Source of the DNA: Bacillota bacterium
GTDB lineage: Bacteria > Bacillota > Sulfobacillia > Fermentithermobacillales > Fermentithermobacillaceae
Assembly: GCA_040766225.1 (NCBI GenBank)
Contig: JAXGQX010000002.1
Span: 8,790 to 72,789 of the forward strand
Reading direction: 5' to 3'
DNA: 64,000 nucleotides
The position numbers were made by a program, and so were the translations under genes. Positions 4,242 through 36,063 of the stretch are shown piece after piece (position 1 is the first letter of the stretch; every line of letters begins with the position of its first letter). Below the pieces are notes generated by a model that made no database searches, was not told where the DNA came from, and worked only from the letters and a program-made list of their open reading frames with translations.

Positions 4242-5435
4242 GGGGTTCACACCTTCCGCTTCTTGATCTAACCCAAGTATACAGGGAACCGCGCGCAGTC
4301 GCTGAAGTCTACACCCGCGGCCAGGAGAGAGCGCGAGAACATCGTGGCTAAGCGCGGCGATAGGGCGGGTCTGATTGCTCTGTGTAGATAAGTGTAGGTG
4401 GGGGAAAGAACGTGAGTAGTAATGAGCCTCAACCCAAAGCACCGGCTCCCTCCGCATGCCCTGCTAGATAAAACTCCGACGACTGACTCGCTGGATGGTA
4501 GTACGCCTATTTTGGCAACTGTGTGCGATAGCATCAGCGCCGTCGCGATGTGGTTAGCCATGGGGTCATCACCCGGTCTCACCTGCCCGATGGTGGACGC
4601 AACTTCGGCAACAACTGGCGGTATGGTCTTCTCTTGATGCTGTTGCCCGCGTGCCAACGCTGTTTCCAACTTTATCGAAGGGCTGCGCCGCCCTCTCACA
4701 CTCTCTCTGGCAACTGTCATTGTCATGCTGACAGCCGGAGAATTGGACACTCTCGCTGCCATTTGGCGGGTATGACTTCTATGCGAAAATCGGACTCTAC
4801 TGGGTCTCGTTTCTTTCGGGCGTCGTTTTCGCGGTGGTGGTTCGCTTAGTGAGCGATAAGGAGCATGGAAGAGAAGCGTCGGCTCAGTGGCACGAAGCTT
4901 GCTGACTATAGTCTTCATCGTCCTCAGCGTGACGTTTGCGGGGGCGCAGCCGGGAGGGGTGATATCCTCGGTGAGGCGTGGCCTTCCCATTCCGCGAGCG
5001 CTGTGGACATGGAGCCTCTGGGGGTCAAAGTGCCTGTATGAGGCGACCGCTCCGGGCAGCTACGTTGCCGTGCAGCCAGCATCCTCAGCTAACGGCAAGG
5101 CTCACTACGATCCTCCTGCTAGCTTCCTTCAGCGACCGGTGGGCTATCATCGATCAATAGCGGGACCGCGCATGAGTTCAGCCTTCTGCCGGCGATCACA
5201 GGGGCTCTTCCCGAATCCGATCGCCCTCGGGGTGAGGCTGTGAAAGGCAGATTCCAGGACATGCGAATTCCAGTGATCTGAATGGTTCGGATAGCCAGAT
5301 GCCGAAACCTCCGTCACCGCCCTCGGACTAGCGGCGCTTACGTTCCCTGAACGCATAGATCTGCGTGGGGTCGAGTTTGTAGTTGACATCAGTCTCGGCG
5401 AAAGACGAGCAAACGTCGTCGCCAGAAGCGCGCAC

Positions 5436-6937: not shown

Positions 6938-7199
6938 AGAGATGCCCTCCTTTCCGGGTAACTGCGCCTCAGGCCTATTGCCGTGGAGGTAGGGAGCGGA
7001 CTTAGGAACCGCCTAAGAACCGCCAAACTTCAGCCTAGCGAAACCGCCGTGTAGCGATTCGATTAACGTAATGTATGACTTGGATGGGCAAAACGTGATG
7101 TCAAGAGGTGGTAATTGGCAGGATTTCAGCCTATCTCGGCATATGTAATCCGGTGTGCTTCTACAGAACGCTTTCGAGAACGAAAGGGAGTACTGAGAA

Positions 7200-8830
7200 G
7201 TGGAGCAGGAGATGAGGGATTCCGGCATCGAGCAGCTGGGCGGCGTGCCGTGGGGCTTCACGTTTGCCACTTTTATGAGTCAAAGACGGAACTGCTTGAA
7301 TCCTCGTGCCCTATACGGAGCGGGGCTCAAGAACAACGAGTGCTGCGTATGGGTTTGCTCTGAGCCGGTTTGCGAAGGGAAGCGCTCGCAGCTCTGCGTG
7401 AGGCAGTGCCCGGCCTCGATCCTTCATAGAAACCGGGCAACTGGAGGTACTTCAGTTCGATGGTTGGTATCTCCGGCCCGGCGGGGGCTTAGAGCCTGAA
7501 AACGTTCTCTGCAAATGGAAGCAGAAACTCGCCCAAGCCATCTCCGCAGGATACCAGGGTATTCGAGTAGCGGGGAACACGTCATGGGTGGAAAATGAGA
7601 TATGGAGGAGTTCACAGAGTACGAAGGGCGCATCTCCGGAGCGATAGGAAAAGACAACATCTTGGTCATGTGCTCTTACCCTTGCTCAATGAGAGAGGCT
7701 CCGCAGGTTGTAGATGTGGTCAAGAATCACCAAGCATGCTCTTGTTCGAAGCGAACTCGGCTGGGACCTCGTTGAATGCGGACGGTACTGGGAGCGCGAA
7801 TGGGGAGTCCCTTTCGACGAGATCGAAGAGGAATTCTGGTTAATGGGCGGCGAAGGGGAGATCCTGGCTGCTAACCGGGTCCTGCTGGATTGCTTCCGCG
7901 TTAAGGGCATGCGAGACCTTGGTAAGGACCTTGACGAAGCCTTTGCAGCCAAATTCGAAGTTGCGTCCCGACATTCTGACGACCGTCTCTCCCTGTTGGA
8001 AGTATTGGGGGCCGGCAATGGCCGCAGCAATTGGCTCGCCACCATACCCGAGGTGCGAGAAAGCATCGAATTGTCTATCCGCGCTCGCACTGTCCGTGCC
8101 ACCTCATACGTCTCCACTCGCTACCTTCTGCTGATCCACGACGTAAGCGGAGATCCGCCGCTTGGGCGGATGAAAGACCGGTTTGTGCAAGTCATGGGGC
8201 ACGAGTTGAAGAACCCTATTCAGGTGATGAAGGCCCTGGTGCCTCTCCTAAATATGATGGAGTCCCCCGAGATTTCAACCATCCGTCGCTACGCCAAGAT
8301 GCTGAACGCGCAGATCACGCAGCTTTCATCCCTCATCGAGGACCTGCTGACGGCTTTGCGCGTCGGAAGGCAGCCAACTACTTACTTTGAAGTCCGACCG
8401 ATCTCGTGAATCTGGTCAGCGAGCGGGGCCAATTCCCAGGTGTCGACGAAGGGTCACGAGGTTATCCAGCTGTTCACCACAAATGAAGAGCTCCCGTATT
8501 TGTGGACGGGAGGCGCGCCCGTGGGATTCTCGCCAACGTGTTCCGGGAACGCGGTGAAGTACTCTCCCGAGCACGGATTTGGATAGACATTAGGGTGCAA
8601 TCAGGTTCTGCGCTGGTCATCATCGAGGACGAAGGCGTCGGCATTCCGGATAGTGAACTGGAACTGGTTTTCAGGCGTTCTACCGCGGATCAAATACCGA
8701 TCAGACTGACGTCGACGGTGTGGGAATTGGGCTATTCATCAGCAAGAAAGTGGCTCGTCAACACGGAGGCGACCTTTGGGCGGAGCAGCGAGAAGGCGGC
8801 GGCACACGAACCATCTTGAGGCTTCCTCTC
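7200..8830 (+). pseudogene. MEDS-domain sensor histidine kinase, at least 4 frameshifts
   Basis: MEDS-like N-terminus (HVCHFYESKTELLESS...GLKNNECCVWV...NILVMCSYP). HisKA H-box VMGHELKNPIQVM in frame of 7714-8409. HATPase N/G1 box IEDEGVGIPDSELELVFRR in the 8502 frame. G2 box GIGLFISKKVARQHGGDLWAE in the 8720 frame. Confidence 0.6.
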
Positions 8831-9020
8831 TTGGAGGACCCAGCCGACCTGGCTCCGCGACTTTGGGGGGCTAGTCTATCGACGTGGGAAGTCTTGGCGT
8901 CTTATTGCCGGGAAAATGCCAAGGACAGGGTATCGAGAGGGAACACAGCGCCGCCATCGTCGTCTATACGGGTGGCGCGGCTCCTTGCGCCGTAAGTTCT
9001 GACACAAGGAGGTTTCTACC

Positions 9021-10290
9021 ATGCCGACGTCTCTTAGCCGGAATCTCGGTGATCGCGCTATCACGCGTATTGCTCTGCATTCTCGTCTGCGCCCTCAGTG
9101 TCCTCGCGCTCGCAGGCTGCGCGACGAAGCCCAACCCTGTCAATGCTACCCCAGCTAAGAACACGGTCTCTTTCGCAAAGAGGAGCGCTTCCTTTGGAAT
9201 TGACCTGTTCAAGTCCATCTACGACCCCGCCGACTCCATGAATATCGTTATGTCGCCGTTCAGCGTAACCGAAGCGCTGGCGATGGCCCTAAACGGCGCG
9301 TCAGGCGAGACATTGGAGGACATGAGCCGCGTCCTCAACTTCGGAGACTTGACGATCCCGGAGATGAACGCCGCCAGTGAGGAACTCTGCGCCATATTGA
9401 TGGGTTCTGACCCTACAAGGCAACTCCTCTTAGCCAACTCAGTCTGGCTTCGGGATGGCTACCCTTTTGATAAGGACTTCATCAATTCAGTGGAAGAGGC
9501 GTTCGAGGCGGAGGCACGCGTCCTGGATTTCACTTCTCCCAACTCTGTCCGAAAGGTCAACGATTGGGTGAAACAAAAGACCAAGGGCAAGATCGAATCC
9601 ATCCTGGACAGCATTGGCGTAAATGACCTGGCATACCTGGTAAACGCCATTTACCTGAAAGCCGATTGGTCAGACGAGTTTGACCCGAACAAGACAAGCG
9701 ACGCGCGCTTCTCCACGCCAACTTCGCAGGTGACGGTCAAGATGATGCGCAGAAAGGCTGAGTACGCGTATCTCTCTGGAGACGGGTTCCAGTCGGTTCG
9801 AATACCCTATGGCGGGGGCAGCACGGCCATGTACGTTTTCTTGCCTGACGAGGATGTGGGACTTGAAGGTTTCATTGAAGACATGGCCTCCCAGAACTGG
9901 GAGCGCTGGATGGAGAGCTACCAGAAAAAGACGGTCTCCTTGGGGATGCCGCGGTTCACCGGGAAATATGAGACGCTCATGAACGACGCTCTGAAATCTA
10001 TGGGAATGGATATCGCTTTCGACTGTGATCGGGCTGATTTCCGGGGAATGTCCTCAACGAAAGATCGGAACCCCGGCATATTCATCGGTAGGGTCATCCA
10101 CAAGGGTTTCATCTCCGTAGGGGAGAAAGGCACAGAGGCTGCCGCCGCGACCGGGGTGGTCATGGAAACTAAATCAATGCCCTTAGAACCTGAGTTGTCG
10201 GTGGTCTTGAACCGGCCGTTTTTCTACGTCATAAGAGACGATGTCACCGGAGCTGCGCTATTCATGGGGACGGTCGTGGATCCGAGTTAG
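9021..10290 (+). CDS. Serpin (serine protease inhibitor), predicted lipoprotein; 1-nt indel right after the start codon
   Basis: Serpin core motifs (NIVMSPFSVTEALAMALNGA, hinge GTEAAAATGVVME, C-terminal PFFYVIRD). AAGGAGG ribosome-binding site plus ATG at 9021 is in frame 0, while the signal peptide RRLLAGISVIALSRVLLCILVCALSVLALAGC (lipobox LAGC) is in frame 1 (ORF 8884-10290). Confidence 0.8.
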
Positions 10291-10367: not shown

Positions 10368-11198
10368 ATGGGAGGAAACCCGGATACCGAGTCGAAACAC
10401 GCGGGCGAATCAACGCGCGGGCGCATCCTCAAGATGAGGCTGGGCGTGAACCCGAACTCGAGCGGCCACGGAATGCTTTTTGGATCCATGTTTTTCATCC
10501 CTTACTCAGTGCTGTCTTCAATCTTGGCCAATGCGGTGATCTCCAACCTCGATGATGCGCTGGTTTCCTACCGCGATGCCCGATCTCTGCCGTCACGCGG
10601 AGACCGCGCCCTTACGACGGCCGTATGGACTTTGGCGTGGGCGGGCTTTGTCGCGATCTGGGCTGTGCTCCTGTCGTCGATGATCTTGATTAAGGCTCCG
10701 ATATGGGGTTGGGTACTGCTAGGCGCTGCCGCGACGCTTCCCATCGCCTTCTTGGCTTACCGCGCCGCGGTCAATCCGGCTGTGGTCCTTCTGGCCAAGC
10801 GCTCTCTAAAGCCGTGTCTCTGGGGTCTCGTCCTTGGCATTTTCACGGTGCAGGTGTTTGACCCGAGCGCGAGAGATGATCTGTTGGCCGTGATTCTACC
10901 GTACGGCTACGCTGCGCCGCTTGCTATTGTGCTCGCTGCGGGTGCAGCCAGAGCGGCAGGGATTATCCGCCGAGTCGCAAACCTGTCGATTGCCTGCATA
11001 GCCTACGTGATGGTTGGACTCGTCTTGGTTTTCCCGATGCCGCCAATCTCCAGGACTGCCTATAATCCCGTTAGCTTGTTCTTCCCGTTCTGGGGTCTCG
11101 GTGTTCCCTGGGCCGTGGCGATATTATCCCTCATGAGGTTAACGATGACCGTTGCTGTCGGCCCTGATGCGTCCGAGACCGTAGACCCCCTGCCGTGA
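10368..11198 (+). CDS. Polytopic integral membrane protein (about 7 TM), unknown family
   Basis: GAAGGGAGGG ribosome-binding site; hydrophobic helices throughout; stop overlaps the start of the next gene (GTGA), indicating translational coupling. Confidence 0.6.
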   Translation: MGGNPDTESKHAGESTRGRILKMRLGVNPNSSGHGMLFGSMFFIPYSVLSSILANAVISNLDDALVSYRDARSLPSRGDRALTTAVWTLAWAGFVAIWAVLLSSMILIKAPIWGWVLLGAAATLPIAFLAYRAAVNPAVVLLAKRSLKPCLWGLVLGIFTVQVFDPSARDDLLAVILPYGYAAPLAIVLAAGAARAAGIIRRVANLSIACIAYVMVGLVLVFPMPPISRTAYNPVSLFFPFWGLGVPWAVAILSLMRLTMTVAVGPDASETVDPLP

Positions 11199-12337
11199 AG
11201 GTCCATAGGATACGCTTTGAGCATTTCGGCGGCATCATAGCCACCGACGAACCCGCGACGTTGCTGTGGGTGGATAGGGATTACTTGCGAGCCAGAGGGT
11301 TTGACGGTGGCACGGTATGGGAGGGAACAGATCCGGGCTTCCTATCGGGACCTGTCGAGGTAGAGATCGCGATCACGGCTCGCTGCAACCTCAGGTGTCC
11401 CTGCTGCTACACCTCGGCGGAACGGGGGGGACCGGACGTGTCGCTTAGGGCCGTCATCAGGGCTCTCGACGCCGCCGCCCGCGCAGGCGCTTTCCACGTC
11501 GCTTTCGGCGGCGGGGAACCCCTTATCCATCCGGACTTACTACGCATGGGCCGCGCTGCCCGCGAGCGAGCGTTGCTGCCATCGCTTACGACCAACGGAC
11601 GTTTGGTTACTCCCAGGTGGGCGAAGCAAGCGAAGGGTCTGTTTCCCCGCGTGAATGTCAGCATCGACTTGCCAGGCGGTCCACGGGATCCGGCGATGAC
11701 GCTGGACGAGTCGCTCGGTGCTGTCAGGACTCTTGTCGATAGCGGCATTACGTGTGGCTGCAACCTCATTCTGACGGAGGACATCATCCCCCAACTCGAC
11801 CGCGCGTTTTCCGAGGTCTCTAAGGCTGGGGCAGACAGCTTGATGCTCCTTAGGGCGAAACCTTCCGGGCGGGGCAGGGACGAATACGAGAGGATGCGCT
11901 TGTCCGGCCCGACCCAGTCCGCTTTAGTACCGCGCTTACTAGAGTTGTCCGAGGGCCACAAACTTCCCTTTCACCTTGACTGCGCTTTCGCGCCACTTCT
12001 TATGACCTCGCAAGTGTCACGCCGGCGCCTGGAGGACCTGGGCGCGTACGGCTGTATCGCGGGGGACTTGCTGGCTACCGTCGATCCCGATGGCCTGGTC
12101 CACCCTTGCAGTCACCTAGACTTCACCGTGGGCCGGATTGAGGACCTGCCAAGTTCGTGGACGGACGGGTCCGCCTGGGGCGCTTTCCGTGACCGCGACT
12201 CTCGCCTGACAGGGAAATGCTCTAGATGCGGCGTTAAGGACCTCTGCCGCGGCGGATGCGCTGTCGTCAACGCACATTACGGCCTCGGGCTCGACCAACC
12301 AGATCCCGGTCTAGCTTGCAGCCCGCGCTCGGTGTAG
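11195..12337 (+). CDS. Radical SAM/SPASM-domain protein with an N-terminal RRE-like element of peptide-modifying rSAMs
   Basis: CNLRCPCCY CxxxCxxC cluster. N-terminal IRFEHFGGIIATDEP...LLWVDRD resembles the leader-binding N-terminus of SuiB/streptide-type maturases. Cys-rich C-terminus (CSRCGVKDLCRGGCAV) is consistent with SPASM/twitch auxiliary clusters. Confidence 0.8.
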   Translation: MKVHRIRFEHFGGIIATDEPATLLWVDRDYLRARGFDGGTVWEGTDPGFLSGPVEVEIAITARCNLRCPCCYTSAERGGPDVSLRAVIRALDAAARAGAFHVAFGGGEPLIHPDLLRMGRAARERALLPSLTTNGRLVTPRWAKQAKGLFPRVNVSIDLPGGPRDPAMTLDESLGAVRTLVDSGITCGCNLILTEDIIPQLDRAFSEVSKAGADSLMLLRAKPSGRGRDEYERMRLSGPTQSALVPRLLELSEGHKLPFHLDCAFAPLLMTSQVSRRRLEDLGAYGCIAGDLLATVDPDGLVHPCSHLDFTVGRIEDLPSSWTDGSAWGAFRDRDSRLTGKCSRCGVKDLCRGGCAVVNAHYGLGLDQPDPGLACSPRSV

Positions 12338-12490
12338 ACCAACCTGATCCTGGCCTGGCTTGCAGCCCGTGCGCGATCTAGACCAACCAGACCCTAGCCT
12401 GGCTTGCAGCCCGGGCGCAGTGCAGACCAACTTGATCCTGGCCTGGCTTGCAGCCCGGGCGCGATCTAGACCAACCAGATCTTGGCCTAG
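12293..12490. repeat. Tandem repeat, 44-bp unit x about 4.5 (GACCAACCAGATCCTGGCCTGGCTTGCAGCCCGGGCGCGATCTA), begins inside the last codons of the rSAM gene
   Basis: Direct reading: units at 12293, 12337, 12381, 12425 and a degenerate fifth. Confidence 0.85.
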
Positions 12491-12621
12491 ATAGACTGCA
12501 GCCCGCACGCTCTTCGCACCGACAAGATCCCGGCCCTAAGCCGAATCCAAGTTCGATCTCGGCTCGATGCGCCGTCCGACCCCGTGCCGTAGTTGCCGAC
12601 GCCTTCATTCTCCCACTCCGA

Positions 12622-13020
12622 GTCATCAGAAACTGACACCTCTGGCACTAGGTCGTCAGCCATTGACGACTTCCTACCGCGGAGTCATCAGCCCGTGACG
12701 CCTTGCCGGCGCCGAGTCATCAACCACTGACACCTCTGGCGCCGAGAGTCGTCAGCCATTGACGACTTCCTATCGAGGAGTAGTCAGCCGGTGACACCGC
12801 CTGCGGCTAGTCGTCAACCACTAACACCTCTGGCACTAGGTCGTCAGCCATTGACGACCTTCCTACCGCGGAGTCATCAGCCCGTGACGCCTTGCCGGCG
12901 CGGAGTCGTCAACCACTGACACCTCCGGCGCTGGGTCGTCAGCCATTGACGACTTCCTACCGCGGAGTCGTCAGCCCGTGACACCTTGCCGGCGCCGAGT
13001 CGTCAACCACTGACACCTCG
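12622..13020. repeat. Higher-order tandem array of about 12.7 units of 30-33 bp in three alternating variants A-B-C (96-bp super-unit x about 4.2). Each unit starts GTC[G/A]TCA and carries a short inverted repeat; the B unit is GTCGTCA-GCCAT-TGACGAC.
   Basis: Units located at 12622, 12652, 12684, 12716, 12748, 12780, 12810, 12840, 12873, 12905, 12935, 12967, 12999. Stop codons in all six frames. No ORF of 60 aa or more between 12637 and 12956. Confidence 0.85.
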
Positions 13021-13149
13021 ACACCGCTTGCCCAAAATTCGGCACAAAGCATATGCGAAGTCATCTTGCGAACAGGCGCGACGTCTTGTACTATTGAGGC
13101 GTGGAGGTGACGGTTCCATGACAACGAGATTGCCCGGCAGGGCAGGCCT

Positions 13150-13316
13150 CCTAGAGCCCCAGCCACCGGCACTCCTAAGCCCCAGCCACCGGCACTCCTA
13201 GAGCCCCAGCCACCGGCACACCTAGAGCCTCAGCTATCGGCGTTCCTACGGCTCCTGTCAATCGCATTCCCACGGCCCCTGCCACGAGTATGCCCACCGC
13301 TTCAGTGGCCGCGTCG
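13150..13316. repeat. Tandem repeat, 24-bp unit x about 7 (CCTAGAGCCCCAGCCACCGGCACT, progressively degenerate), running into the 5' end of the antitoxin ORF
   Basis: Direct reading. Confidence 0.8.
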
Positions 13317-13616
13317 CCTGGGACTCCGACAAGCCTTCAACCTGCCTCTTCAGCGGGCCCGGCGGATACCGCGGCAACTGTCTACACCACAGTTAGCAGC
13401 CGGTTTCAAACCGTCATTCCGTCCGAGATCCGAGAGAAGTTTGATGTGCGAGAAGGTTCCCGGCTTATGTGGCTCGACAGGGGAGATTCCATCGAGGTGG
13501 TGCCTGTCCCGGTTAAGCCCTGGAAGGCGTTTCGTGGGGCTGCGCGGAGAAGCAAGATGTTGCTCAAAGGCGATGGTGAACAGGAAACTCTACTTGATGG
13601 AGACGATAACCCATGA
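13290..13616 (+). CDS. AbrB/MazE/SpoVT-fold antitoxin (VapB-like) with a Pro/Ala/Thr-rich N-terminal extension of about 30 aa
   Basis: TVSSRFQTVIPSEIREKFDVREGSRLMWLDRGDSIEVVPV matches the SpoVT_AbrB swapped-hairpin domain. 4-bp overlap with the downstream PIN gene. Confidence 0.7.
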   Translation: MPTASVAASPGTPTSLQPASSAGPADTAATVYTTVSSRFQTVIPSEIREKFDVREGSRLMWLDRGDSIEVVPVPVKPWKAFRGAARRSKMLLKGDGEQETLLDGDDNP

Positions 13617-14052
13617 GCGAGGCGTACCTTCTCGACACCACCTCCATTCTCGCGTTGTACCGCGATGAGGCGGGAGCCGATACCGTCGAGGAGCTTTTCG
13701 AAAAGCGAGAACGCGATGGGACAGAGTTGCTCGTTGCCTCAGTCACCCTCTTTGGGATCATGTGGATGGCCATGTCGGAGCAAGGTGAGGACAAAGCCTT
13801 TCGACTTCTACTAGACATCCGAGGTCTCAACATGCTGGAAGTTTGGCCTGACGAATCGATTCTTTGACGGCTGCCCGGCTGAAGCAGACGGGCCTCAGCG
13901 ACTCAGGGGCGTTGATAGCATCTTCAGCTTTGGCCAAGGGAGCCGTGCTTGTGCACAAGCGTCCAGAGTACAGAAGACTCGCCGAAGCCGACCGTGGGCT
14001 ACGCGTCAAAGCGTTGGACATCTCGTCGAGAGGCTCTTCTACTGGCTCTTAG
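13613..14052 (+). CDS. PIN-domain toxin (VapC-like), one frameshift near 13860
   Basis: N-terminal YLLDTTSILALYRDEAGADTVEELF plus LLVASVTLFGIMW. The C-terminal part SGALIASSALAKGAVLVHKRPEYRRL is in the next frame (ORF 13864-14052). Confidence 0.65.
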
Positions 14053-14058
14053 CCCTAT

Positions 14059-14150
14059 TCAGCCGCAGGTCGCCCGCCCGCCGCAGGTCGCCCGCCAGCC
14101 GCAGGTCGCCCGCCCGCCGCAGGGCACTCGCCCGCCGCAGGCGGTAAGAG
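14059..14150. repeat. Tandem repeat, 18-bp unit x 5 (CCGCAGGTCGCCCGCCCG)
   Basis: Direct reading. Confidence 0.8.
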
Positions 14151-14328
14151 CTAAGACGACGCCTGCGACCGCGGACAAAGCCTGCGTGTCCCTAGCAAGT
14201 TTTAGGCGAGGACTTCGCCTGCCTTGCGCTTTTTGACGCAGAGATCGCCTGATCCCAGGTTCTATGCGCCTTTTTCCTTGAATTTCCGCCAAAACGCCGA
14301 AGGCATACTACTGCCGGAGGTGCGGTCA

Positions 14329-15212
14329 ATGAACAGCTTTTCCGTAGCCTCAGGAAGAGCCCTCAAGTCCATAAGGCACCTCGTCAGTCAGGAAATCGGT
14401 GCCTGGGAGGCCCGAGGCGTTAGGATCAGCGTCAAAGAAAGTCAGGCAGGAGAGCTTCTGGTCTTGCGTTGTGAGGTCCCAAAAACCCGAGAGGTTGAGC
14501 CGCACGGAAATACTTCAGACGATAAAAGCTTCCGTAGCCAACGGATTGTCCCATATCATCGTCGACGAGTACGAGAAACTCCTGGTGGTCCGCCTGATCG
14601 ACGATAATTACGCGTACCTGTCCTCCATGACCGGGAGATCTAAAACGCAAGGCCATGTCAAAACTGGCCGGGCGGGACGGAGCTACGAGCATCGGGCACT
14701 CGGGACAGAGGAAGAGCCGGGTTTGGGCTAAACTGGCTGAATACCTGGAGCGAGAAGACGAAATCGTGCTGGAAGGCTTCATAACCTTTCGACTGAAGGA
14801 ATACCTGGAGGACCTGTTCGACACAGTTGAGGAGACCGTCGAGGATTACCTGACCGAACGTGAGTACAGGGAATTCCTAAAGCTTCTGAGACATTTCATG
14901 TCGCGACAGAAAGAGTCAACCTATCAGGTAAACATCGTGAGAGACGGGGTCCGGTACCAGGTGCTTGACGAGAAACTGAAACCTGTGTCCGGCGAGGTGG
15001 GAAGATTCTTGGATAGACCGCCTAGGGGGATCGACCTGGGTGTGGACGACCTAATCGTGAGCGCGGTGGTGACACTGGCTCCGGAACTGGTGGTTTGGCA
15101 CGGCAAGGTTGACGGTTCGCCGTGTTACGATCTCATACATGACCTCTTTGAAGGACGATTGCACGTCTGCCCCGGTTGTGCTCTGGACTCAGGCGGATCG
15201 CCGGTGGTATAA
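14329..15212 (+). CDS. ytxC: YtxC-like sporulation protein, 2 frameshifts (pieces in ORFs 14224-, 14399- and 14655-)
   Basis: GGAGGTG ribosome-binding site plus ATG at 14329. Lies immediately upstream of thrS as in Bacillus and Clostridia. C-terminal piece EYLEDLFDTVEETVEDYLTEREYREFLKLLRHF is typical of YtxC. Confidence 0.55.
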
Positions 15213-15224
15213 TGCCCAAAACAT

Positions 15225-15497
15225 ATAACGGCTGTGAAGAGGAAAGTACCTGAAGGTCTCGCAGAAGAGAGGGAAGGCCAAGGCTGAGAGCCTTCCTGCA
15301 GGCGACCGGAAGTGAACACCACCTCGGAGCCTCCGGCAGAAGCTCGCCCCGGACAGGGCAATCGAGATAATGCCGGCGCCAAGAGCGCGATACAGCAAGA
15401 CGAGGGCCGGCTAGCCTGATTCCTGATTATTGAGGGTAGCCTGGCCGTTAAGGGTGGAACCGCGGAAACCCCCGCCCCTTTTGGGACGGGGTTTTTT
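15225..15497 (+). promoter_or_regulatory. T-box riboswitch leader of thrS with terminator
   Basis: T-box sequence AAGGGTGGAACCGCGG at 15449-15465, followed by a GC hairpin and U-tract CCCCGCCCCTTTTGGGACGGGGTTTTTT at 15468-15497. Confidence 0.65.
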
Positions 15498-15586
15498 GTA
15501 TGTCCAACGGCTGTGAGTCGGCTGTGAATCGGTGGTGAATCGGTGGCGAATGTGGTGAATGCGGGGAATCAAAGGAGGCTATTGAT

Positions 15587-17540
15587 ATGTCTTTGGATGA
15601 AGTGCGAGTATCTTGCGGCGGAGCCGTCTGTGAGCGTCCCCAAAGACGGGACGTTCCTCGACGCCAAGAAGGCTTTGTCGTGGAAGAACGACGTGCTAAT
15701 GGTGTTGTCTGGAGGGGAACCCAAGGAGCTTAGGAGCAAGGTCCAGGGGAGTGTGACGTCGTCCCGTTGACCTTCGAAGACGAGCGAGCCGCTGGGCGCT
15801 CCGCACACCGCCGCTCACGTGCTCGCTCAAGCCGTAAAGCGGCTCTATCCGGGAGTACGATTGGGCATAGGCCCGGCGATTGACGAGGGCTTCTACTACG
15901 ACTTTGATCTAAAGAGCCCGTTCGTGCCGGAGGACCTGGAGAAAATAGAGGCCGAGATGAAGAAGATAGTCTCGGAGAACATCCCTGTCGTTCGCCAGGA
16001 AGTGGACAGGGAGACGGCAAGGAAGATGTTCTCCGACATGGGTGAGGACTACAAGGTCGAGTTGATAGACGACCTGCCTGAGGACTCGGTCATCTCCCTT
16101 TACAGGCAAGGCGAGTTCGTAGACCTGTGCGCCGGCCCTCACGTCCCGTCCACCGGCTACCTTAAAGCCGTGAAACTGCTGAACTTCGCGGGCGCGTACT
16201 GGCGCGGAGACGAGAAACGGCCTATGCTGCAGCGGATCTACGGTACGGCCTTCATGAGCCAGGACGACCTGAAGCAGTACCTCGACAAGCTGGAGGAAGT
16301 CAAGAAGAGGGACCACCGCAGGCTGGCCAAGGAACTGGACCTGTTCAGCATCCAAGAAGAAGGCGGCCCCGGCTTGGTCTATTGGCATGCCAAGGGCGCT
16401 CTGATTCGGGAGATAATCGAGGACTTCTGGCGCAAGGAGCACCGCAAGAGAGGCTACGATATCGTCTACTCGCCGCACATCGCCAAACTTGACCTCTGGA
16501 AGACGTCCGGGCACTGGAACTGGTACAGAGAGAGCATGTACGCTCCAATGGCCATTGAAGAAGTCGAGTACATGCTGAAGCCGATGAACTGCCCCTTCCA
16601 TATCCTGATGTTCAAGAACCAGACCAGGAGCTACAGGGACCTGCCAATGCGCATGGGCGAGCTTGGGACGGTCTACAGATACGAGCGTTCGGGCGTGCTC
16701 CACGGAGCCTTGCGCGTAAGGGGCTTTACGCAGGATGACGCTCACGTCTTCTGCACCCGGGAGCAGCTGGAAGACGAGCTGATAGGGGTCTTGGAACTGG
16801 CTCAGTTCATGCTGACGACGTTCGGCTACGCCGAGTACGAGTGTATGCTGTCGGTGAGAGACCCTGAGAACAAGGCCAAGTACGTCGGCGACGATGAGAG
16901 CTGGGCGTTGGCCCAGAACGCTTTGGAGCAGGCTCTCTTAAGAAAGAACCTTCCGTATACGGTCGAGGAAGGCGAAGCCAAATTCTACGGACCCGCCATC
17001 GACATCAAGGTTAAGGACGCTTTGGGGCGGCGCTGGCAGGGGCCCACCATCCAGGTGGACTTCAACAACCCCGAGAGGTTCGACGTCACCTATGTCGGAG
17101 AAGATGGGTTAAGGCACCGGCCCGTCATGATCCATAGGACCGTCTTAGGCAGCATGGAACGCTTTGTGGCAGGGCTGGTGGAACACTACGCCGGAGCTTT
17201 CCCGTTGTGGCTGTCTCCCACCCAAGTCACGGTCATTCCTATCGCCGACAAGATGGCGGGCTACGCAGAGAAGGTAGCTGCCGCGCTTCGAGAAGAAGGG
17301 TTCCGCGTGAACTGCGACCTCGGACACGAGAAGATGGGTTTCAAGATTCGGCAGGCCCAGATGCAGAAAGTCCCGTACATGCTCGTGGTCGGAGCCAGAG
17401 AAGAGGAGAGCGGGACGGTCTCTGTTCGTCACCGGGCGGGTGGCGACATGGGGGCCATGCCCCTGGATGCCTTCATCAGGGGGGCCAAGGAGGAACTGGC
17501 GACCAAGTCCCTTGAGATGCTGGTGAAGTCGCAAACGTAG
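15587..17540 (+). CDS. thrS: Threonyl-tRNA synthetase; N-terminal TGS region (15587-15820) carries at least 2 frameshifts, remainder intact (ORF 15819-17540)
   Basis: Class II aaRS motifs. HTAAHVLAQAVKRLYPGVRLGIGPAIDEGFYYDFD matches the ThrRS editing-domain start. Upstream frames give GTFLDAKKAL and VVPLTFEDE, matching the ThrRS N-terminus. Confidence 0.9.
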
Positions 17541-17599
17541 CGAAGCGTAGTCCAACCGAAAGCGCGGGGCGGCTCATCCGCCCCAAAGGCTAGACCTAG

Positions 17600-17830
17600 A
17601 CCTTGTCTTGGTGACAGGCAATATGCCTTGTGTTATACTGTGCCATGGACGAAGTAGAAGCCATCCGCTTCTCACCTTACGGCCAAAGCCAGTAAGGTTC
17701 AGAGTGACAACCGAGACTGTCTCCTTTTTTGGAGAGCATGACGTGTTGTGGGCGGGTGGTTCAACCCGCCCACTTTGTTTTCACAATACTGATCACCGGA
17801 AGGAAGGTGGAACGCGATAAGTCAGGACCA
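17600..17830 (+). promoter_or_regulatory. infC-rpmI-rplT operon leader: sigma-A-like promoter and intrinsic terminator/attenuator, consistent with an L20-responsive leader
   Basis: GTGACA-N17-TGtTATACT around 17608-17640. Hairpin GTGGGCGGG-TGGTTCAA-CCCGCCCAC plus TTTGTTTTC at 17748-17782, just upstream of infC. Confidence 0.45.
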
Positions 17831-17834
17831 AAGA

Positions 17835-18452
17835 GTGAATGAAGCGATAAGGGTCCGCGAAGTAAGGCTCGTATCCCAAGATGGCGAGCAACTCGGCATT
17901 AAGTCGACGTATGAGGCGCTCCGGATGGCGAGAGATCTGGGACTGGACTTGGTTGAAGTCGCAGCTCAGGCCAGGCCTCCCGTATGCCGGATTATGGACT
18001 ACTCAAGGTGGAAATACGAGCAGTCCAAGCGCATGAAAGAAACGCGGAAGAAGCAGAAGGTCCAAGACGTAAAGGAACTGAAGATGCGTCCGACCATTGA
18101 CGACCACGATTTTGAAGTCAAGGTGCGGTCGTGCCAAAAGTTTCTATCGGAAGGCGACAAGGTGAAGGCGACCATCATGTTTCGTGGCCGAGAGATGGCC
18201 CACTTGGAGAACGGTCAGCGGGTCCTAGAGGCACTCCTGGAGAGGGTCAAGGGTTTTTGTATAGTGGAGCGACCTCCAAGGATCGAAGGTCGGAACATGA
18301 TCATGGTGCTGTCTCCCAGGCCTCAACCCCAGCAACAGCAGAGCGCGCAGCAATCCGGGGCATCCGAGGGTACAAAGATAAGGCCCAGGCGACCAACGAG
18401 CCCAAGAGTGAAGAATGACGCGTCAACTGGCGCGTTAGAGGAGATGTTCTAA
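17835..18452 (+). CDS. infC: Translation initiation factor IF-3 with an unusual Q/P-rich C-terminal extension of about 45 aa
   Basis: CRIMDYSRWKYEQSKRMKE and MFRGREMAH signature regions. Confidence 0.9.
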   Translation: MNEAIRVREVRLVSQDGEQLGIKSTYEALRMARDLGLDLVEVAAQARPPVCRIMDYSRWKYEQSKRMKETRKKQKVQDVKELKMRPTIDDHDFEVKVRSCQKFLSEGDKVKATIMFRGREMAHLENGQRVLEALLERVKGFCIVERPPRIEGRNMIMVLSPRPQPQQQQSAQQSGASEGTKIRPRRPTSPRVKNDASTGALEEMF

Positions 18453-18619
18453 TGCCCAAGAACAAGATGAAGACACAGCGGGGCGAAAAAGCGCTTTTTT
18501 CGTAACCGGTACCGGGAAAGTCCGACACTACCATTCCGGCCACAGCCACAGGCTGTCGGGTAAGGATGCCGCCTGCAGGCGGAGACTAAAGAAGGACTCC
18601 GGTATCAGCGTGGCCCGAT
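18452..18619 (+). CDS. rpmI: 50S ribosomal protein L35, frameshifted (at least 2 indels)
   Basis: MPKNKMKTQRG then TGTGKVRHYHSGHSHRLSGKDAACRRRLKKD in shifted frames; TAATG overlap with infC. Confidence 0.6.
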
Positions 18620-18702
18620 GAAGAGAGGATCGTGAGAGTTGATCCCCTACAAGTAAGCTACAAGTAAGGAACGACAGCGCTTAGAGAAAGAGGGTATCCA
18701 TC

Positions 18703-19061
18703 ATGCTCGCGTAAAAACCGGCTTAACCAACCGACATCGTCATAAGAAGATCCTGAAGCTCGCCAAGGGCTATTGGGGCAAGCGTTCAAAGTCCTTCAGG
18801 ATGGCCAACGAGACCGTTATGAAGGCGCTCCACTACGCCAGAAGGCACTGCCGGGAGAAGAAGAGAGAGTTTCGAAGCCTCTGGATTTCCAGGATTAACG
18901 CGGCCGCCCGGGTCAACGGTATGAACCACATAACATCTTCATTAACGGCCTTAAGAAAGCCGGGTCCAGATTAATAGCAGATAAGCCAGCCGACCTTAGC
19001 GGTTTCCGATGGCAAGGCTTTTACGGAACTGGTTACCATGGCAAGGAGCCAGCAAGCGTAG
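18703..19061 (+). CDS. rplT: 50S ribosomal protein L20, frameshifted right after the ATG (atgctcgcg in place of atgGctcgcg)
   Basis: Shifted frame reads [42 protein letters not shown]...[19 protein letters not shown]. Confidence 0.7.
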
Positions 19062-19087
19062 CGTGTCATCTAGATCGGGAGGGAGGA

Positions 19088-20411
19088 GTGTGGGCGACGC
19101 CGACCAGGCTGGTCGTGCTGTCCTTCGGTGCGGTTATCTCAAGTTGGGGACACTGCTCCTGCTTCTCCCGGTATCTACGGCGGATGGGGTTACACCCGGC
19201 GAAGTTGATGCCTTGTTTACGGCGACGGCGGTGTGCGTGACCGGGCTCGTAGTGCGGAACACGGCGACTTTTTGAGCACCGCTGAAAGGTCATCATAATA
19301 GCCCTGATTCAGATAGCGGTCCAGTTTCGATGACCTTCTCCACAGCCCATGCCCTGGTTGTGGGAAGACGTATCGGGCTGCGTGAGCGGTTGGTTATCCA
19401 AGAGCAGACAGGGCAGTGGAGACTGGCCGGGGTCGTCAATCTCATTAAGCGAATCATACTGGTTACCCTGGATTTGAGATAGCGGGCACTCGGGGTTTTT
19501 GGCTCAGCGTTTTGATGACCAGGGGGCTAAGGGGCATTCAGGCGGTATGGAACGGCCTGTTCCACGCCGCTTCGGGCAAGCCTTGTAACGCCGGATTCGA
19601 TATCCTGGGGAACTCCCTCATGGACTATCCGTCAAACGCGCTGGTTACCCTCACCATAGGGTTTCTCATCGTACTTAGCGGGCTGGGTTTTCATGTTATA
19701 GCGGATATCATCGTCCATCGCGGCAAATGGTCGGGCATGAGCCTTCACTGGAGGCTGGCCATCAAGGTCACTGTGACGTTGATAGCCATAGGGATCTCCT
19801 GGCTAATTTCCTGCCGGCGGAGCTGGGAACCTGGGCACCCTGGGTCCGCTCGACCCAGCGAAGGCTGCTCGCTTCATGGTTTCAGGCTGTTAGCCCGCGC
19901 ACGGCAGGGTTCAACAGCAATGCTGTGGAGAATCTGCTGCCCCCAACCGTCTTAGTGACAATGGCGCTCATGTTCATCGGAGCCTCTCCCGGAAGTACGG
20001 GGCGGCGGAGTGAAGACGACTACTTTCGCGGTAGCCGTCAAGTCCGTAGTGGCCACAATCCGCGGCGAGGAAGATGTGAATATAGGCAACAGGAGGGTAT
20101 CTCGACATCGTCTCCAAGGCCTTTGCCATTCTGATGCTGGCGGTGTTGATAGTCTTGGTGCAGGCACCCTAATCCTTACCTGGACCGAGTCTAGGCCCTT
20201 TATCGACCTCCTTCGAGGTCGTCTCCGCGTTCGGCACGGTGGGATTGACCAGGGGGATCACACCCTCCTTGTCTGTGGTGGGCAACCACGACTATCGCGT
20301 TCATCATGTTTGTGGACGGGCCGGCCCCGTCAGCCTGGCGTTGGCCCTTACAGGCAGCGGGTCGAAGGCGGAACCATCCGCTATCCCGAAGAGAAAAATC
20401 GGTGTCGGATA
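19088..20411 (+). CDS. ktrB: Ktr/Trk potassium uptake membrane subunit, multiple frameshifts
   Basis: Fragments LFTATAVCVTGLVV, FHAASGKPCNAGFD, MALMFIGASPGSTGGG and KTTTFAVAVKSVVATIRGEED across three frames. Confidence 0.7.
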
Positions 20412-33833: not shown

Positions 33834-36063
33834 TTAGGGAGTGCGCGGAGGGTTCTGTCCGCCAGGATTCTGTCCGCCAGGATTCTGTCCGCCAGGATTC
33901 TGTCCGCCAGGATTCTGTCCGCCAGGATTCTGCCCGCCAGGATTTCGCCCTCCCGGATTCTGTCCTCCGGGGTTCCATTCACCGGGCTCCAACCCCGGGA
34001 TCTCGATGGGGAACTCCATATCCGGGAACTGCGGCACGTGATAAGTGCACATGGAACTGGGCTGCCTCTCTTTGACGAACATCTCTTCCACGATTTCTTC
34101 CGGTGGGCAGAGCGGGCCAGGAAGCAAGCCCGACTTCTCACAGATCATGCTCGTTACGATGGTGCTAGGTTTGACGAAATCCTCGGGCGCGTGCTTAGCC
34201 GTGATAGTCGTCATCATTTCCTTCCAAATCCTCGCAGGGTAGGTTCCGCCTGTGATCTTCCATTGCTCCATGGTCTTCTCTTGGTCGAAGCCCATCCAGA
34301 CCACTCCGACGGTGTTGGGGGTGTAGCCGCAGAACCACGCGTCTTTCCAGTCGGAGGTGGTCCCCGTCTTTCCGGCGCACGGTATGCCGATGTCAGCTGC
34401 CCGCCCGGTTCCGTACTGCTCCTTAACGGCGCCTTGAGCATGCTTGTCATGAGATAGGCCGACTCTTCCGAGATAACCAGTTCTCTCTTGGGAACATGTT
34501 CCTCAAGCACGTTGCCGTTCTTGTCTTCTACCCGAATGATGCTTATGGGCTCAACTTTGATGCCCCTGTTGGCGAGAACGCCGAAGGCACCGTCATGTCC
34601 AAGGGCGACGCGCCGTAAGTGAGGCCGCCCAGCGCCAAAGATCTGGTGAGATCCGACCGCCCATCCGGCGTGTGACCCTTGACCAGCGAAGTGATACCTA
34701 GTCTTTCAGCCATTTCTAGGCTCTTGGGCAGGCCGATGATGTCTTGGACCTTGGCCGCCACGACGTTCAGGGATTCCCTGACGGCAAGCCGCATCGTTAC
34801 TAGGCCTTGGAACGAATAGGTGTAGTTTCTCGGAGAGAACGCCTCTTTGGTTATCGGGTCTACCCAGGTAACCGGCGCATCGTCTATGACCGTGGCCGGT
34901 CCCATTCCTTCCTCAAGAGCCGCGACGTACACCGCCAGCGGCTTGAACGATGAGCCGGGCTGCCTCTTGGCGTCGATCGCCCTGTTCCACCCGAGAGCAC
35001 CTTCCCGGTTCCGCCCGCCCACGATGGCCAATAGATGCCCCGTCTTGGCGTCCATAACGATGGAGGCCGCCTGAATGCTGTCGGTTCCCTCGTAAGGGAA
35101 CTCCTTGTCCAATACGGTGGCTATGGCTTTCTCGGCGGCTTCCTGGTCCGCCGGACTATAGGCGGTGTAGATCTTCATGCCGCCTCCGTATACCATCTCC
35201 GCGGGATACCTGGACAAGAGCTGTTTCAGTACGTAGTCCAGGTAATAACCGCCGGTGGAAACGACCTCCTGCCCGCCGGACTTGGCGTTTATGGGCGTCT
35301 TCTTGTACTCCTCGCATTCGGCTAAGGTAATGTAGCCGTACTCCGCCATTTGCTCCAAGACGGTGTTCCGCCTGGCCAAAGCGTTGTCCGGATGATCTGT
35401 CGGGTCGTAGTAGGAGGGTCCTTTCAGGAGTCCCGCCATCATAGCGGCTTCCGGGACGGTCAGTTCGGAAGCCGGCTTGCCGAAGAACGTCCTTGCTCCC
35501 GCTTCGATCCCGTAGGCGCCGCGACCGAACGGAACCTGGTTCATGTACATTTCCAGGATTTCGTTCTTCGTGTACTTCCTTTCAAGCATTATCGCGGCGG
35601 TAGCGTCCTGGACTTTTCTCTTGTAACTTTGAGCGTCGGTGAGGAATGCCTTCTTGGCTAGCTGCTGCGTGATGGTGCTTCCACCTTGAGGGGTGGAGCT
35701 GTCTCCGGTCAAGTTGACGACGAACGCCCGAATGATTGCCCTTAGGTCGACGCCGATATGGTCGTAGAAGCGGCAGTCCTCGGCGGCCAGAATAGCGTCC
35801 TTGACATGTTGGGGCAACTCATCGACGTCGATTAGCACCCTGTTCTCGGTGGAATGGAGTTCGGTCCAGACCCGCCCATCCTTGTCGTAGACAAACGAGG
35901 TCTGGCTCGGTTTCGGCTCCAGGTCAGCCAATGCGGGAAGCACTTCCTTGATGGCGGAAAACACAAAGGCCGCGGTGATCCCTCCGGTAATCAGGATTCC
36001 CGCGAGCAGAACGTACAGGATGATGTGAAAGACGTTGACCCGTCTGGTTTTCGTCTTGGCCAT
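33834..36063 (-). CDS. Class A penicillin-binding protein (PBP1A: transglycosylase plus transpeptidase) with a C-terminal (NPGGQ)x8 repeat tail; one frameshift around 34300-34540
   Basis: GT51 motifs (EDxRFYxH-like AAEDCRFYDHIGVD); TP motifs SSFKP and KTG. The C-terminal piece (ORF 33834-34304) ends in NPGGQ repeats encoded by 15-bp DNA repeats at 33851-33985. Confidence 0.85.

Follow-up and report, generated by a model that had tools for sequence, protein, structure and literature searches.

The question raised by this locus is what some 400 bp of non-coding, directly repeated sequence represents on the chromosome of an uncultured, thermophilic member of the Fermentithermobacillaceae. A first-pass annotation, made from the sequence alone, had described the repeats and named protein-binding sites, a structured RNA with repeated stem-loops and a recombination hotspot as candidate roles. 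Tandem mini-ORFs and a minisatellite devoid of function are further readings that have to be weighed against the same evidence.

Architecture of the array

Within the window, as the whole 64,000-nucleotide stretch of DNA analyzed here is called, the main array spans positions 12622-13030 of the forward strand and is composed of 13 head-to-tail units of 30-33 bp. These belong to three types that follow one another as A-B-C four times before a final A, the units starting at 12622, 12652, 12684, 12716, 12748, 12780, 12810, 12840, 12873, 12905, 12935, 12967 and 12999. TRF calls the array at 12618-13019 with a period of 94 bp (4.3 copies, 85% matches, score 602) and offers a second description with a period of 32 bp and 11.5 copies. 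The tandem array and the order of its units are real as first annotated, but the 12.7 units of 32 bp given there are 13 units of variable length, and the 96-bp periodicity gives way to measured block periods of 94, 94, 95 and 94 bp. Each unit is made up of a 19-bp core, GTCrTCA-N5-TGACrnC, and an 11-14-bp spacer, which in the last unit merges into unique sequence after 13019. The opening GTC[G/A]TCA, at first taken to be universal, is present in 12 of the 13 units, the sixth starting with GTAGTCA. All 13 units match the motif GTCRTCANCCNNTGACRNC with at most two mismatches, against 0.5 matches expected from shuffled sequence, and a single weak match lies outside the array within the window, at 4565. 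From a reading of the letters, the array is probably preceded by a leading degenerate unit, GTAGTTGCCGACGCCTTCATTCTCCCACTCCGA, at 12589-12621 on the same strand, which retains GACGCCTT as the C units do.

The cores of the four B units (12652-12670, 12748-12766, 12840-12858 and 12935-12953, located by motif match and unit read-out) are identical copies of a perfect 7+5+7 palindrome, GTCGTCA-GCCAT-TGACGAC, exactly as had been described. Read as RNA, the B units form a hairpin of -10.8 kcal/mol and are the only units with a strong one. The A and C units show mere 4-5-bp complementarity (-0.5 to -4.5 kcal/mol as RNA), so that the term "hairpin-bearing", initially applied to every unit, suits the B units and not the other two types.

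The array is confirmed independently by contig L076, assembled from short reads of a different sample and matching the window at ~99% identity, which starts within the array and carries its last 2.5 units in identical form. Comparison of positions 12941-19200 of the window with this contig yields ~30 one- or two-base indels, many of them in one-base runs, and 62 substitutions in 6.2 kb. The PIN toxin gene (13613-13867 / 13864-14052) and ytxC (~14224-15212), both downstream of the array, are split in the window and intact in the contig (146 and 294 aa). The window is probably a long-read assembly with residual indel errors, and small differences in unit length among the arrays therefore need to be read with caution.

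Several stops are present in each of the six frames of the array, because the conserved TCA/TGA falls in every frame by turns, and the description of the array as non-coding stands. The 32-nt unit can all the same be read as NTG...TGA, that is, as 10 codons with an overlapping stop and start, and this raises the alternative of tandem mini-ORFs, for instance precursor peptides for an rSAM/SPASM maturase. The neighboring gene does encode a radical SAM/SPASM (rSAM) enzyme, of an uncharacterized subfamily for which the named NCBIfam models all score far below cut-off, the nearest being peptide or cofactor maturases, and GGAG is found ten nt before GTG at B-to-C junctions. The supposed start, however, is CTG in the A units of the window and in most units of a related array described below, from which GGAG is absent; the 30-nt units disrupt the reading pattern, all frames are closed, and the conserved positions are symmetric between strands, which coding constraint would not predict. 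Mini-ORFs or RiPP precursors were rejected on the unconserved start codons and GGAG, the broken frame and the symmetric conservation, and are very improbable.

The rSAM-ytxC junction in the window and in related genomes

Upstream of the array, the window holds a serpin gene (8884-10290), a gene for a 276-aa membrane protein and the rSAM gene (11195-12337, forward strand). The latter is overlapped at its end by a 44-bp x 4.5 tandem array (TRF; 12293-12488, forward strand), which repeats the rSAM 3' end (DQPDPGLACSP codons) and sets the gene apart from the 32-bp array in the window's lineage only. The DQPDPGLACSP peptide recurs in three different frames past the true rSAM stop and is present in a single copy in four relatives' loci (L061, L062, L068 and L075). 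The downstream side is formed by a promoter-like piece (13031-13139, forward strand), a 24-bp x 4.2 tandem array (TRF; 13148-13248), an AbrB/MazE antitoxin gene followed by a PIN toxin gene, an 18-bp x 4.4 repeat (GCCGCAGGTCGCCCGCCC; 14062-14141) just 3' of the PIN stop codon, and the conserved ytxC upstream region with the start of that gene (14181-14400, forward strand; 88.7% identical to L062 7393-7613). The array had been placed between the rSAM gene and the toxin-antitoxin (TA) pair; the order is right, but neither is a direct neighbor, since the 44-bp and 24-bp arrays intervene. Beyond the 18-bp array, the gene order is ytxC, a T-box leader, thrS, infC and pheST, and the remaining window is housekeeping chromosome (PolX, MutS2, TyrRS, RuvA, SpoIID, QueA, Tgt, MraW and PBPs), in which genes for partition, replication initiation or recombinases were not seen. 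The T-box leader upstream of thrS (15225-15482) scores 69.9 bits (E=2.5e-14), under the Rfam gathering score of 93, possibly as a result of indel errors in the window.

The rSAM/SPASM gene is always preceded, in the window (10368-12337) as in L061, L062, L068 and L070, by an overlapping gene for an uncharacterized membrane protein (181-389 aa) that has no Pfam or NCBIfam match, and the gene pair is found in several different neighborhoods. At L071 5001-6170 (GCA_050952025.1), a fusion protein, P0040, resembles the membrane protein of the window over its first two thirds, by reading, and its C-terminal third aligns with the final third of rSAM/SPASM (85% identity across 31% of the query); a VapB-PIN pair follows. 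This looks like an internal deletion of the membrane protein-rSAM cassette.

Four of the five arrays with a TRF score above 100 in the window (44, 32/94, 24 and 18 bp), unrelated to one another, crowd into 2 kb, against one in the other 62 kb (a 15-bp x 7.8 repeat, AGGATTCTGTCCGCC, with 91% matches at 33849-33965). Such a sequence-duplicating locus favors a purely mutational origin and brings in the main rival to the binding of a protein: a functionless minisatellite, in which sequence from the 3' flank of the rSAM gene would have been duplicated by slippage or unequal crossing-over and would be in continual turnover, the core being a by-product of homogenization or of which units get copied. 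This explanation is a serious possibility, nearly as likely as the binding-site reading developed below. It is in keeping with the 44-bp array, which merely repeats the rSAM 3' end, and with the 24-bp array, which differs by one copy between near-identical strains. In L076, where the 24-bp repeat (200-270) has one copy fewer, it lies in frame within a 158-aa ORF (L076 179-655), the GTPRAPAT repeats that it specifies preceding the AbrB/MazE antitoxin domain on the N-terminal side; frameshifts cut the same ORF in the window, where only a 108-aa antitoxin ORF is left.

Homologs of the rSAM protein at ~82% identity are encoded by several uncultured Bacillota. In L062, which together with L063 comes from assembly GCA_012840345.1, a Candidatus Fermentithermobacillaceae genome from a biogas reactor, the rSAM is 83% identical to that of the window and the gene order is serpin, small protein, rSAM, ytxC and thrS, with the TA pair absent; serpin, membrane protein, rSAM gene, YtxC and ThrRS are neighbors shared with the window. 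A diverged array occupies the rSAM-ytxC junction of L062 at 7129-7389 (TRF period 94, 2.8 copies). Its 8-9 units run 32+32+30 bp, a pattern also seen in the window. This array begins at the rSAM stop, the first, degenerate unit overlapping the last codons and the stop codon of rSAM, and it ends 4 bp before the conserved ytxC leader. The two genomes are 43-64% identical at 4-fold degenerate sites, which is near saturation, and comparison of their sequences firmly supports a unit length, a 94-bp block and a core common to both. Support is weak for an orthologous relationship of types A, B and C across the two arrays, the mean identity being 0.65 for corresponding types and 0.63 in shifted registers.

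In a further relative (L075), the gene order is the same and only one or two degenerate units are present, and no array accompanies the rSAM cassette or ytxC in genomes that place them in other contexts; the array is therefore dispensable. Unit copy number thus stands at 13 in the window, 8-9 in L062 and at most 2 in L075, and the length variation for which the first-pass annotation had proposed to look is seen between relatives, the arrays of six assemblies of the L062 type being identical. Head-to-tail repeats whose copy number differs between related genomes are what defines a minisatellite or VNTR, and both the range of copy numbers and the absence of the array where the rSAM gene or ytxC lie elsewhere count in favor of a functionless minisatellite.

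The annotation had also pointed out that hundreds of dispersed, REP-like copies would turn the array into an ordinary repeat family. The 10-base degenerate core motif GTNNTCANNNNNTGANNNC occurs in the 64-kb window in the array only, plus one chance match, and in the relatives' loci L061-L075 (~150 kb) in the L062-type array only; one REP-like copy per 10 kb would give ~6 in the window. Sequence collections were scanned with a two-unit pattern, TGACRNC-N11-14-GTCRTCANCCNNTGACRNC, which is too strict for the L062 array and hence speaks to near-identical arrays only. It returned 11 single matches in 185,579 species genomes, against ~9 that we estimate by chance (4^18 x 8 possible patterns over 596 Gb), 49 single matches in a metagenome collection, for which no chance level was estimated, and none in viral contigs. 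None of the fetched loci with this pattern holds more than two units, and BLAST of the array against plasmids (PLSDB) and phages gave no match. Dispersed copies were accordingly seen neither in the window, nor in the ~150 kb of relatives' loci, nor, as near-identical arrays, in the collections. A dispersed family of the REP/BIME or MITE-like kind was rejected for want of further copies in the window, bar one weak and one chance match, or in L061-L075, and as far as can be seen from these sequences the array does not belong to a REP-like family. The array is a single-locus, lineage-specific intergenic element at the junction of rSAM and ytxC-thrS. A CRISPR array, which needs near-identical 23-47-bp repeats and unique spacers of similar length, was rejected as well: the conserved part is 19 bp long, and, in agreement with the initial description of the array as not CRISPR-like, the 11-14-bp spacers recur every three units and there is no cas domain in neighboring ORFs.

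The segment at 13020-14152 (forward strand), comprising the promoter-like piece, the 24-bp repeat, the AbrB/MazE antitoxin gene, the PIN toxin gene and the 18-bp repeat, is absent from L062. On its far side, 1.1 kb downstream of the array, lies a B-like half unit, GACGAC-N7-ACCGCGGA (14155-14175, forward strand), a sequence found only in the B units and at this position, with 0.02 occurrences expected by chance. The half unit is a relic of an array that once reached the ytxC upstream region, and the TA-bearing 1.1-kb segment is a secondary, later insertion into the array and not a part of it, because the segment is absent in L062 and has array sequence on both sides. The link between array and toxin-antitoxin pair implied by the annotation does not hold up, as L062 has the array and no TA pair there, and an origin of the array as operators of the AbrB-type antitoxin was rejected for the same reason; the antitoxin may also touch the array sites.

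The same insertion bears on the proposal that the locus is a recombination target, in which a site-specific recombinase, or another enzyme that processes DNA, would act on the dyad-symmetric cores and the locus would be a place where cassettes, for instance the TA module, can land. The TA-bearing segment, missing from L062, does sit between 13 units on the left and the B-like half unit on the right, the promoter-like piece recurs after the rSAM gene in the different context of L061, and the rSAM cassette is found in several different neighborhoods. Yet there is no recombinase or transposase gene in or beside the segment, reading of the junctions revealed neither terminal inverted repeats nor a duplicated target site, a role in recombination does not call for thirteen tandem sites, and a single insertion event is an anecdote. 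The recombination hotspot suggested at first retains some support in the variable copy number, the array-flanked TA segment and the four arrays in 2 kb, and a dedicated recombination target is improbable. The promoter-like piece itself consists of TTGCGA, 17 nt and TACTAT, with GGAGG and then an ATG (13118) further on. Its counterpart at L061 7204-7316 shares 71% identity and lies directly after the rSAM gene and before TadE-like genes, with no TA pair; the piece resembles a portable module, either promoter or leader.

Conservation of the core and the nature of the sites

Core conservation was evaluated on 17 distinct 19-bp cores from three genomes. The pattern GTnnTCA-N5-TGAnnnC is invariant or nearly so across this set, with G1, T2, T5, T13, A15 and C19 invariant and C6 and A7 at least 90% conserved. 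Information content amounts to 1.7-2.0 bits at positions 1, 2, 5-7, 13-15 and 19, compared with 0.1-0.5 bits at most spacer positions. Differences between unit types and between genomes come to 27-28% for cores and 47-48% for spacers, and differences from the consensus of a unit's own type to 22/361 for cores and 33/238 for spacers (Fisher p=0.002), the units counted being paralogous and non-independent, because concerted evolution can tie them together, and the full arrays coming from two genomes only. Spacers thus drift about twice as fast as cores, and roughly at the neutral rate. The symmetric pairs 1-19, 5-15, 6-14 and 7-13 are fixed, whereas pairs 2-18, 3-17 and 4-16 are unpaired in at least half of the units. 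Over the 7-bp stem as a whole, pairing reaches 70.6%, against 70.3% in shuffled sequences, with one compensatory cell among 119. Comparison of the units thus indicates that the core is more constrained than the spacers and that the constraint is on the symmetric bases, not on base-pairing; symmetric bases that are fixed without pairing fit the recognition of two half-sites better than a stem.

This pattern weighs on the possibility of an RNA function, in which the array would be transcribed within the rSAM operon as its 3' UTR, ahead of ytxC as a leader, or separately as an sRNA, with stem-loops that stabilize an mRNA or sequester an RNA-binding protein in the manner of a CsrB-type sponge. The array is co-directional between two forward-strand genes, nothing resembling a terminator separates it from rSAM, the B-unit hairpins are strong, and the folding energy of the array is below that of shuffled sequences, with z-scores of -5.4 (forward) and -7.8 (reverse) in the window and of -2.8 and -3.5 in L062. 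Low folding energy is, however, expected of any array of quasi-palindromes, and the energy of most units lies between 0 and -5 kcal/mol. For seven 94-nt blocks, RNAalifold returned weak consensus energies and, on either strand, covariation terms that were positive and hence penalizing, and the 7-bp stem is no more paired than in shuffles, as reported above. The array has no Rfam match at gathering score or E<=1, and no tRNA or tmRNA was found. Of the fold prediction recommended by the annotation, the single-sequence result holds, in that folds beat shuffles, and support from covariation does not follow; the structured RNA proposed there finds no backing in Rfam matches, pairing or covariation and is an unlikely explanation.

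The same contrast between core and spacer is the principal difficulty for the functionless minisatellite. Neutral decay or homogenization of whole units predicts equal change in core and spacer, in contrast to the roughly twofold difference in spacers (p=0.002), and leaves eight core positions, fixed or nearly so across otherwise randomized-looking units, without an explanation. The unit length and the 94-bp block have also been retained over near-saturated divergence. Copying driven by hairpins does not explain the core either, because most units form no hairpin. On the other side, the minisatellite explanation draws support from the searches for a partner, as neither a partner protein nor a known motif was found. 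No candidate gene for a DNA-binding protein adjoins the array in both the window and L062, and no ParA/ParB/SopB-type or Rep genes are present among the 39 window ORFs scanned with Pfam, which include all neighbors between 8.9 and 17.5 kb. Among the Spo0A box TGNCGAA, CtsR, CIRCE, FNR/CRP, LiaR/BceR and GntR-type operators, we know of none that fits the invariant positions.

Among the roles first proposed, protein-binding sites appear to fit best, with G1, T5-C6-A7, T13-G14-A15 and C19 fixed and the spacers drifting. The reading that we favor, with a probability of about 0.4, is that the cores are putative duplex-DNA sites for a dimeric sequence-specific protein, set three helical turns apart in an array that resizes in three-unit blocks. 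The half-site would be G-nnn-TCA, with the centers of the two half-sites about one turn apart. By simple arithmetic, 32 bp at 10.5 bp per turn correspond to 3.05 turns, and the sites would lie on one face of the helix, allowing many dimers to bind side by side. Binding would be strongest at the four perfect palindromes of the B type and weaker at the A and C units, and the array would expand and contract through unequal recombination or replication slippage in blocks of three units. Bound in this way, it might insulate the rSAM operon from ytxC-thrS or form a roadblock between them, or it might act as a titration site or as a nucleation site.

Known repeat systems and meaning for the family

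Among known architectures, the closest is the repeat-array type of centromere, exemplified by sopC of plasmid F, in which a 43-bp sequence is directly repeated 12 times and SopB binds a 16-bp inverted repeat within every copy (PMC3177203). As in sopC and similar low-copy plasmid centromeres, about a dozen repeats are arranged head to tail, each with a short dyad-symmetric site, and the repeat length is near a whole number of helical turns (~4 for the 43 bp of sopC and ~3 for the 32 bp found here). The direct repeats of the array contain an internal inverted repeat, symmetric at positions 1, 5-7, 13-15 and 19 and perfect in the four B units. Unlike sopC, the array is chromosomal and in a housekeeping setting, parA/parB-type genes were not found among the 39 ORFs scanned, there are three alternating unit variants with unconserved spacers, and no similarity to PLSDB plasmids was seen.

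Intergenic minisatellites or VNTRs of bacteria include the MIRU loci of mycobacteria. The array resembles such loci, as well as the intergenic minisatellites of Xanthomonas used in MLVA typing (PMC10174486), in consisting of intergenic head-to-tail repeats of tens of bp whose copy number varies between relatives and which probably arose by slippage or unequal recombination. It differs from minisatellites in the three-unit higher-order period kept in two deeply diverged genomes and in the contrast between core and spacer, which points to constraint, and from MIRU-type units, present at many loci, in being found at one locus only.

With REP and BIME elements, the array shares short imperfect palindromes that lie 3' of genes, sometimes in small clusters. 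REPs start with GTAG, as do some units of the array. They number hundreds of sites per genome, however, and alternate in orientation within clusters, whereas the units of the array all share one orientation and the 64-kb window holds no second locus.

Plasmid iterons are likewise direct and directional units, and the units of the array, which resemble protein-binding repeats with partial internal symmetry, are similar to them in this respect. Iterons are usually 17-22 bp long with a spacing of ~22 bp and lie beside a rep gene and an A+T-rich region; the array, in contrast, has a 32-bp period, lies in a 1-kb stretch with 63% G+C, and has no rep gene that could be found. An iteron identity was rejected because there is no rep gene among the 39 ORFs, GC skew is positive throughout, and neither origin features nor a plasmid match are present.

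Taken in full, our tentative proposal is a chromosomal array of putative dyad-symmetric sites, grouped in three-site blocks and placed three helical turns apart, for a DNA-binding protein of the Fermentithermobacillaceae. The array would have been kept for long at the rSAM-ytxC junction and would serve as a nucleoprotein platform (an insulator or roadblock, a titration sink or a centromere-like nucleation site) without linked partition genes.

Whichever reading is correct, what is reported here concerns a single small clade and does not open up any question of long standing. In practical terms, the array is a break point for short-read assemblies: L076 starts inside it, which shows why such assemblies miss the array, and L077, a contig from another sample, begins inside the 18-bp repeat. 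If it is a mere minisatellite, the array would provide a hypervariable marker. If the cores are real binding sites, the array would be to a chromosome what repeat-array centromeres or iterons are to plasmids, without linked partner genes and in a barely studied group of thermophilic Bacillota, and a 19-bp palindrome repeated 13 times would offer a handle for fishing out the protein that binds it.
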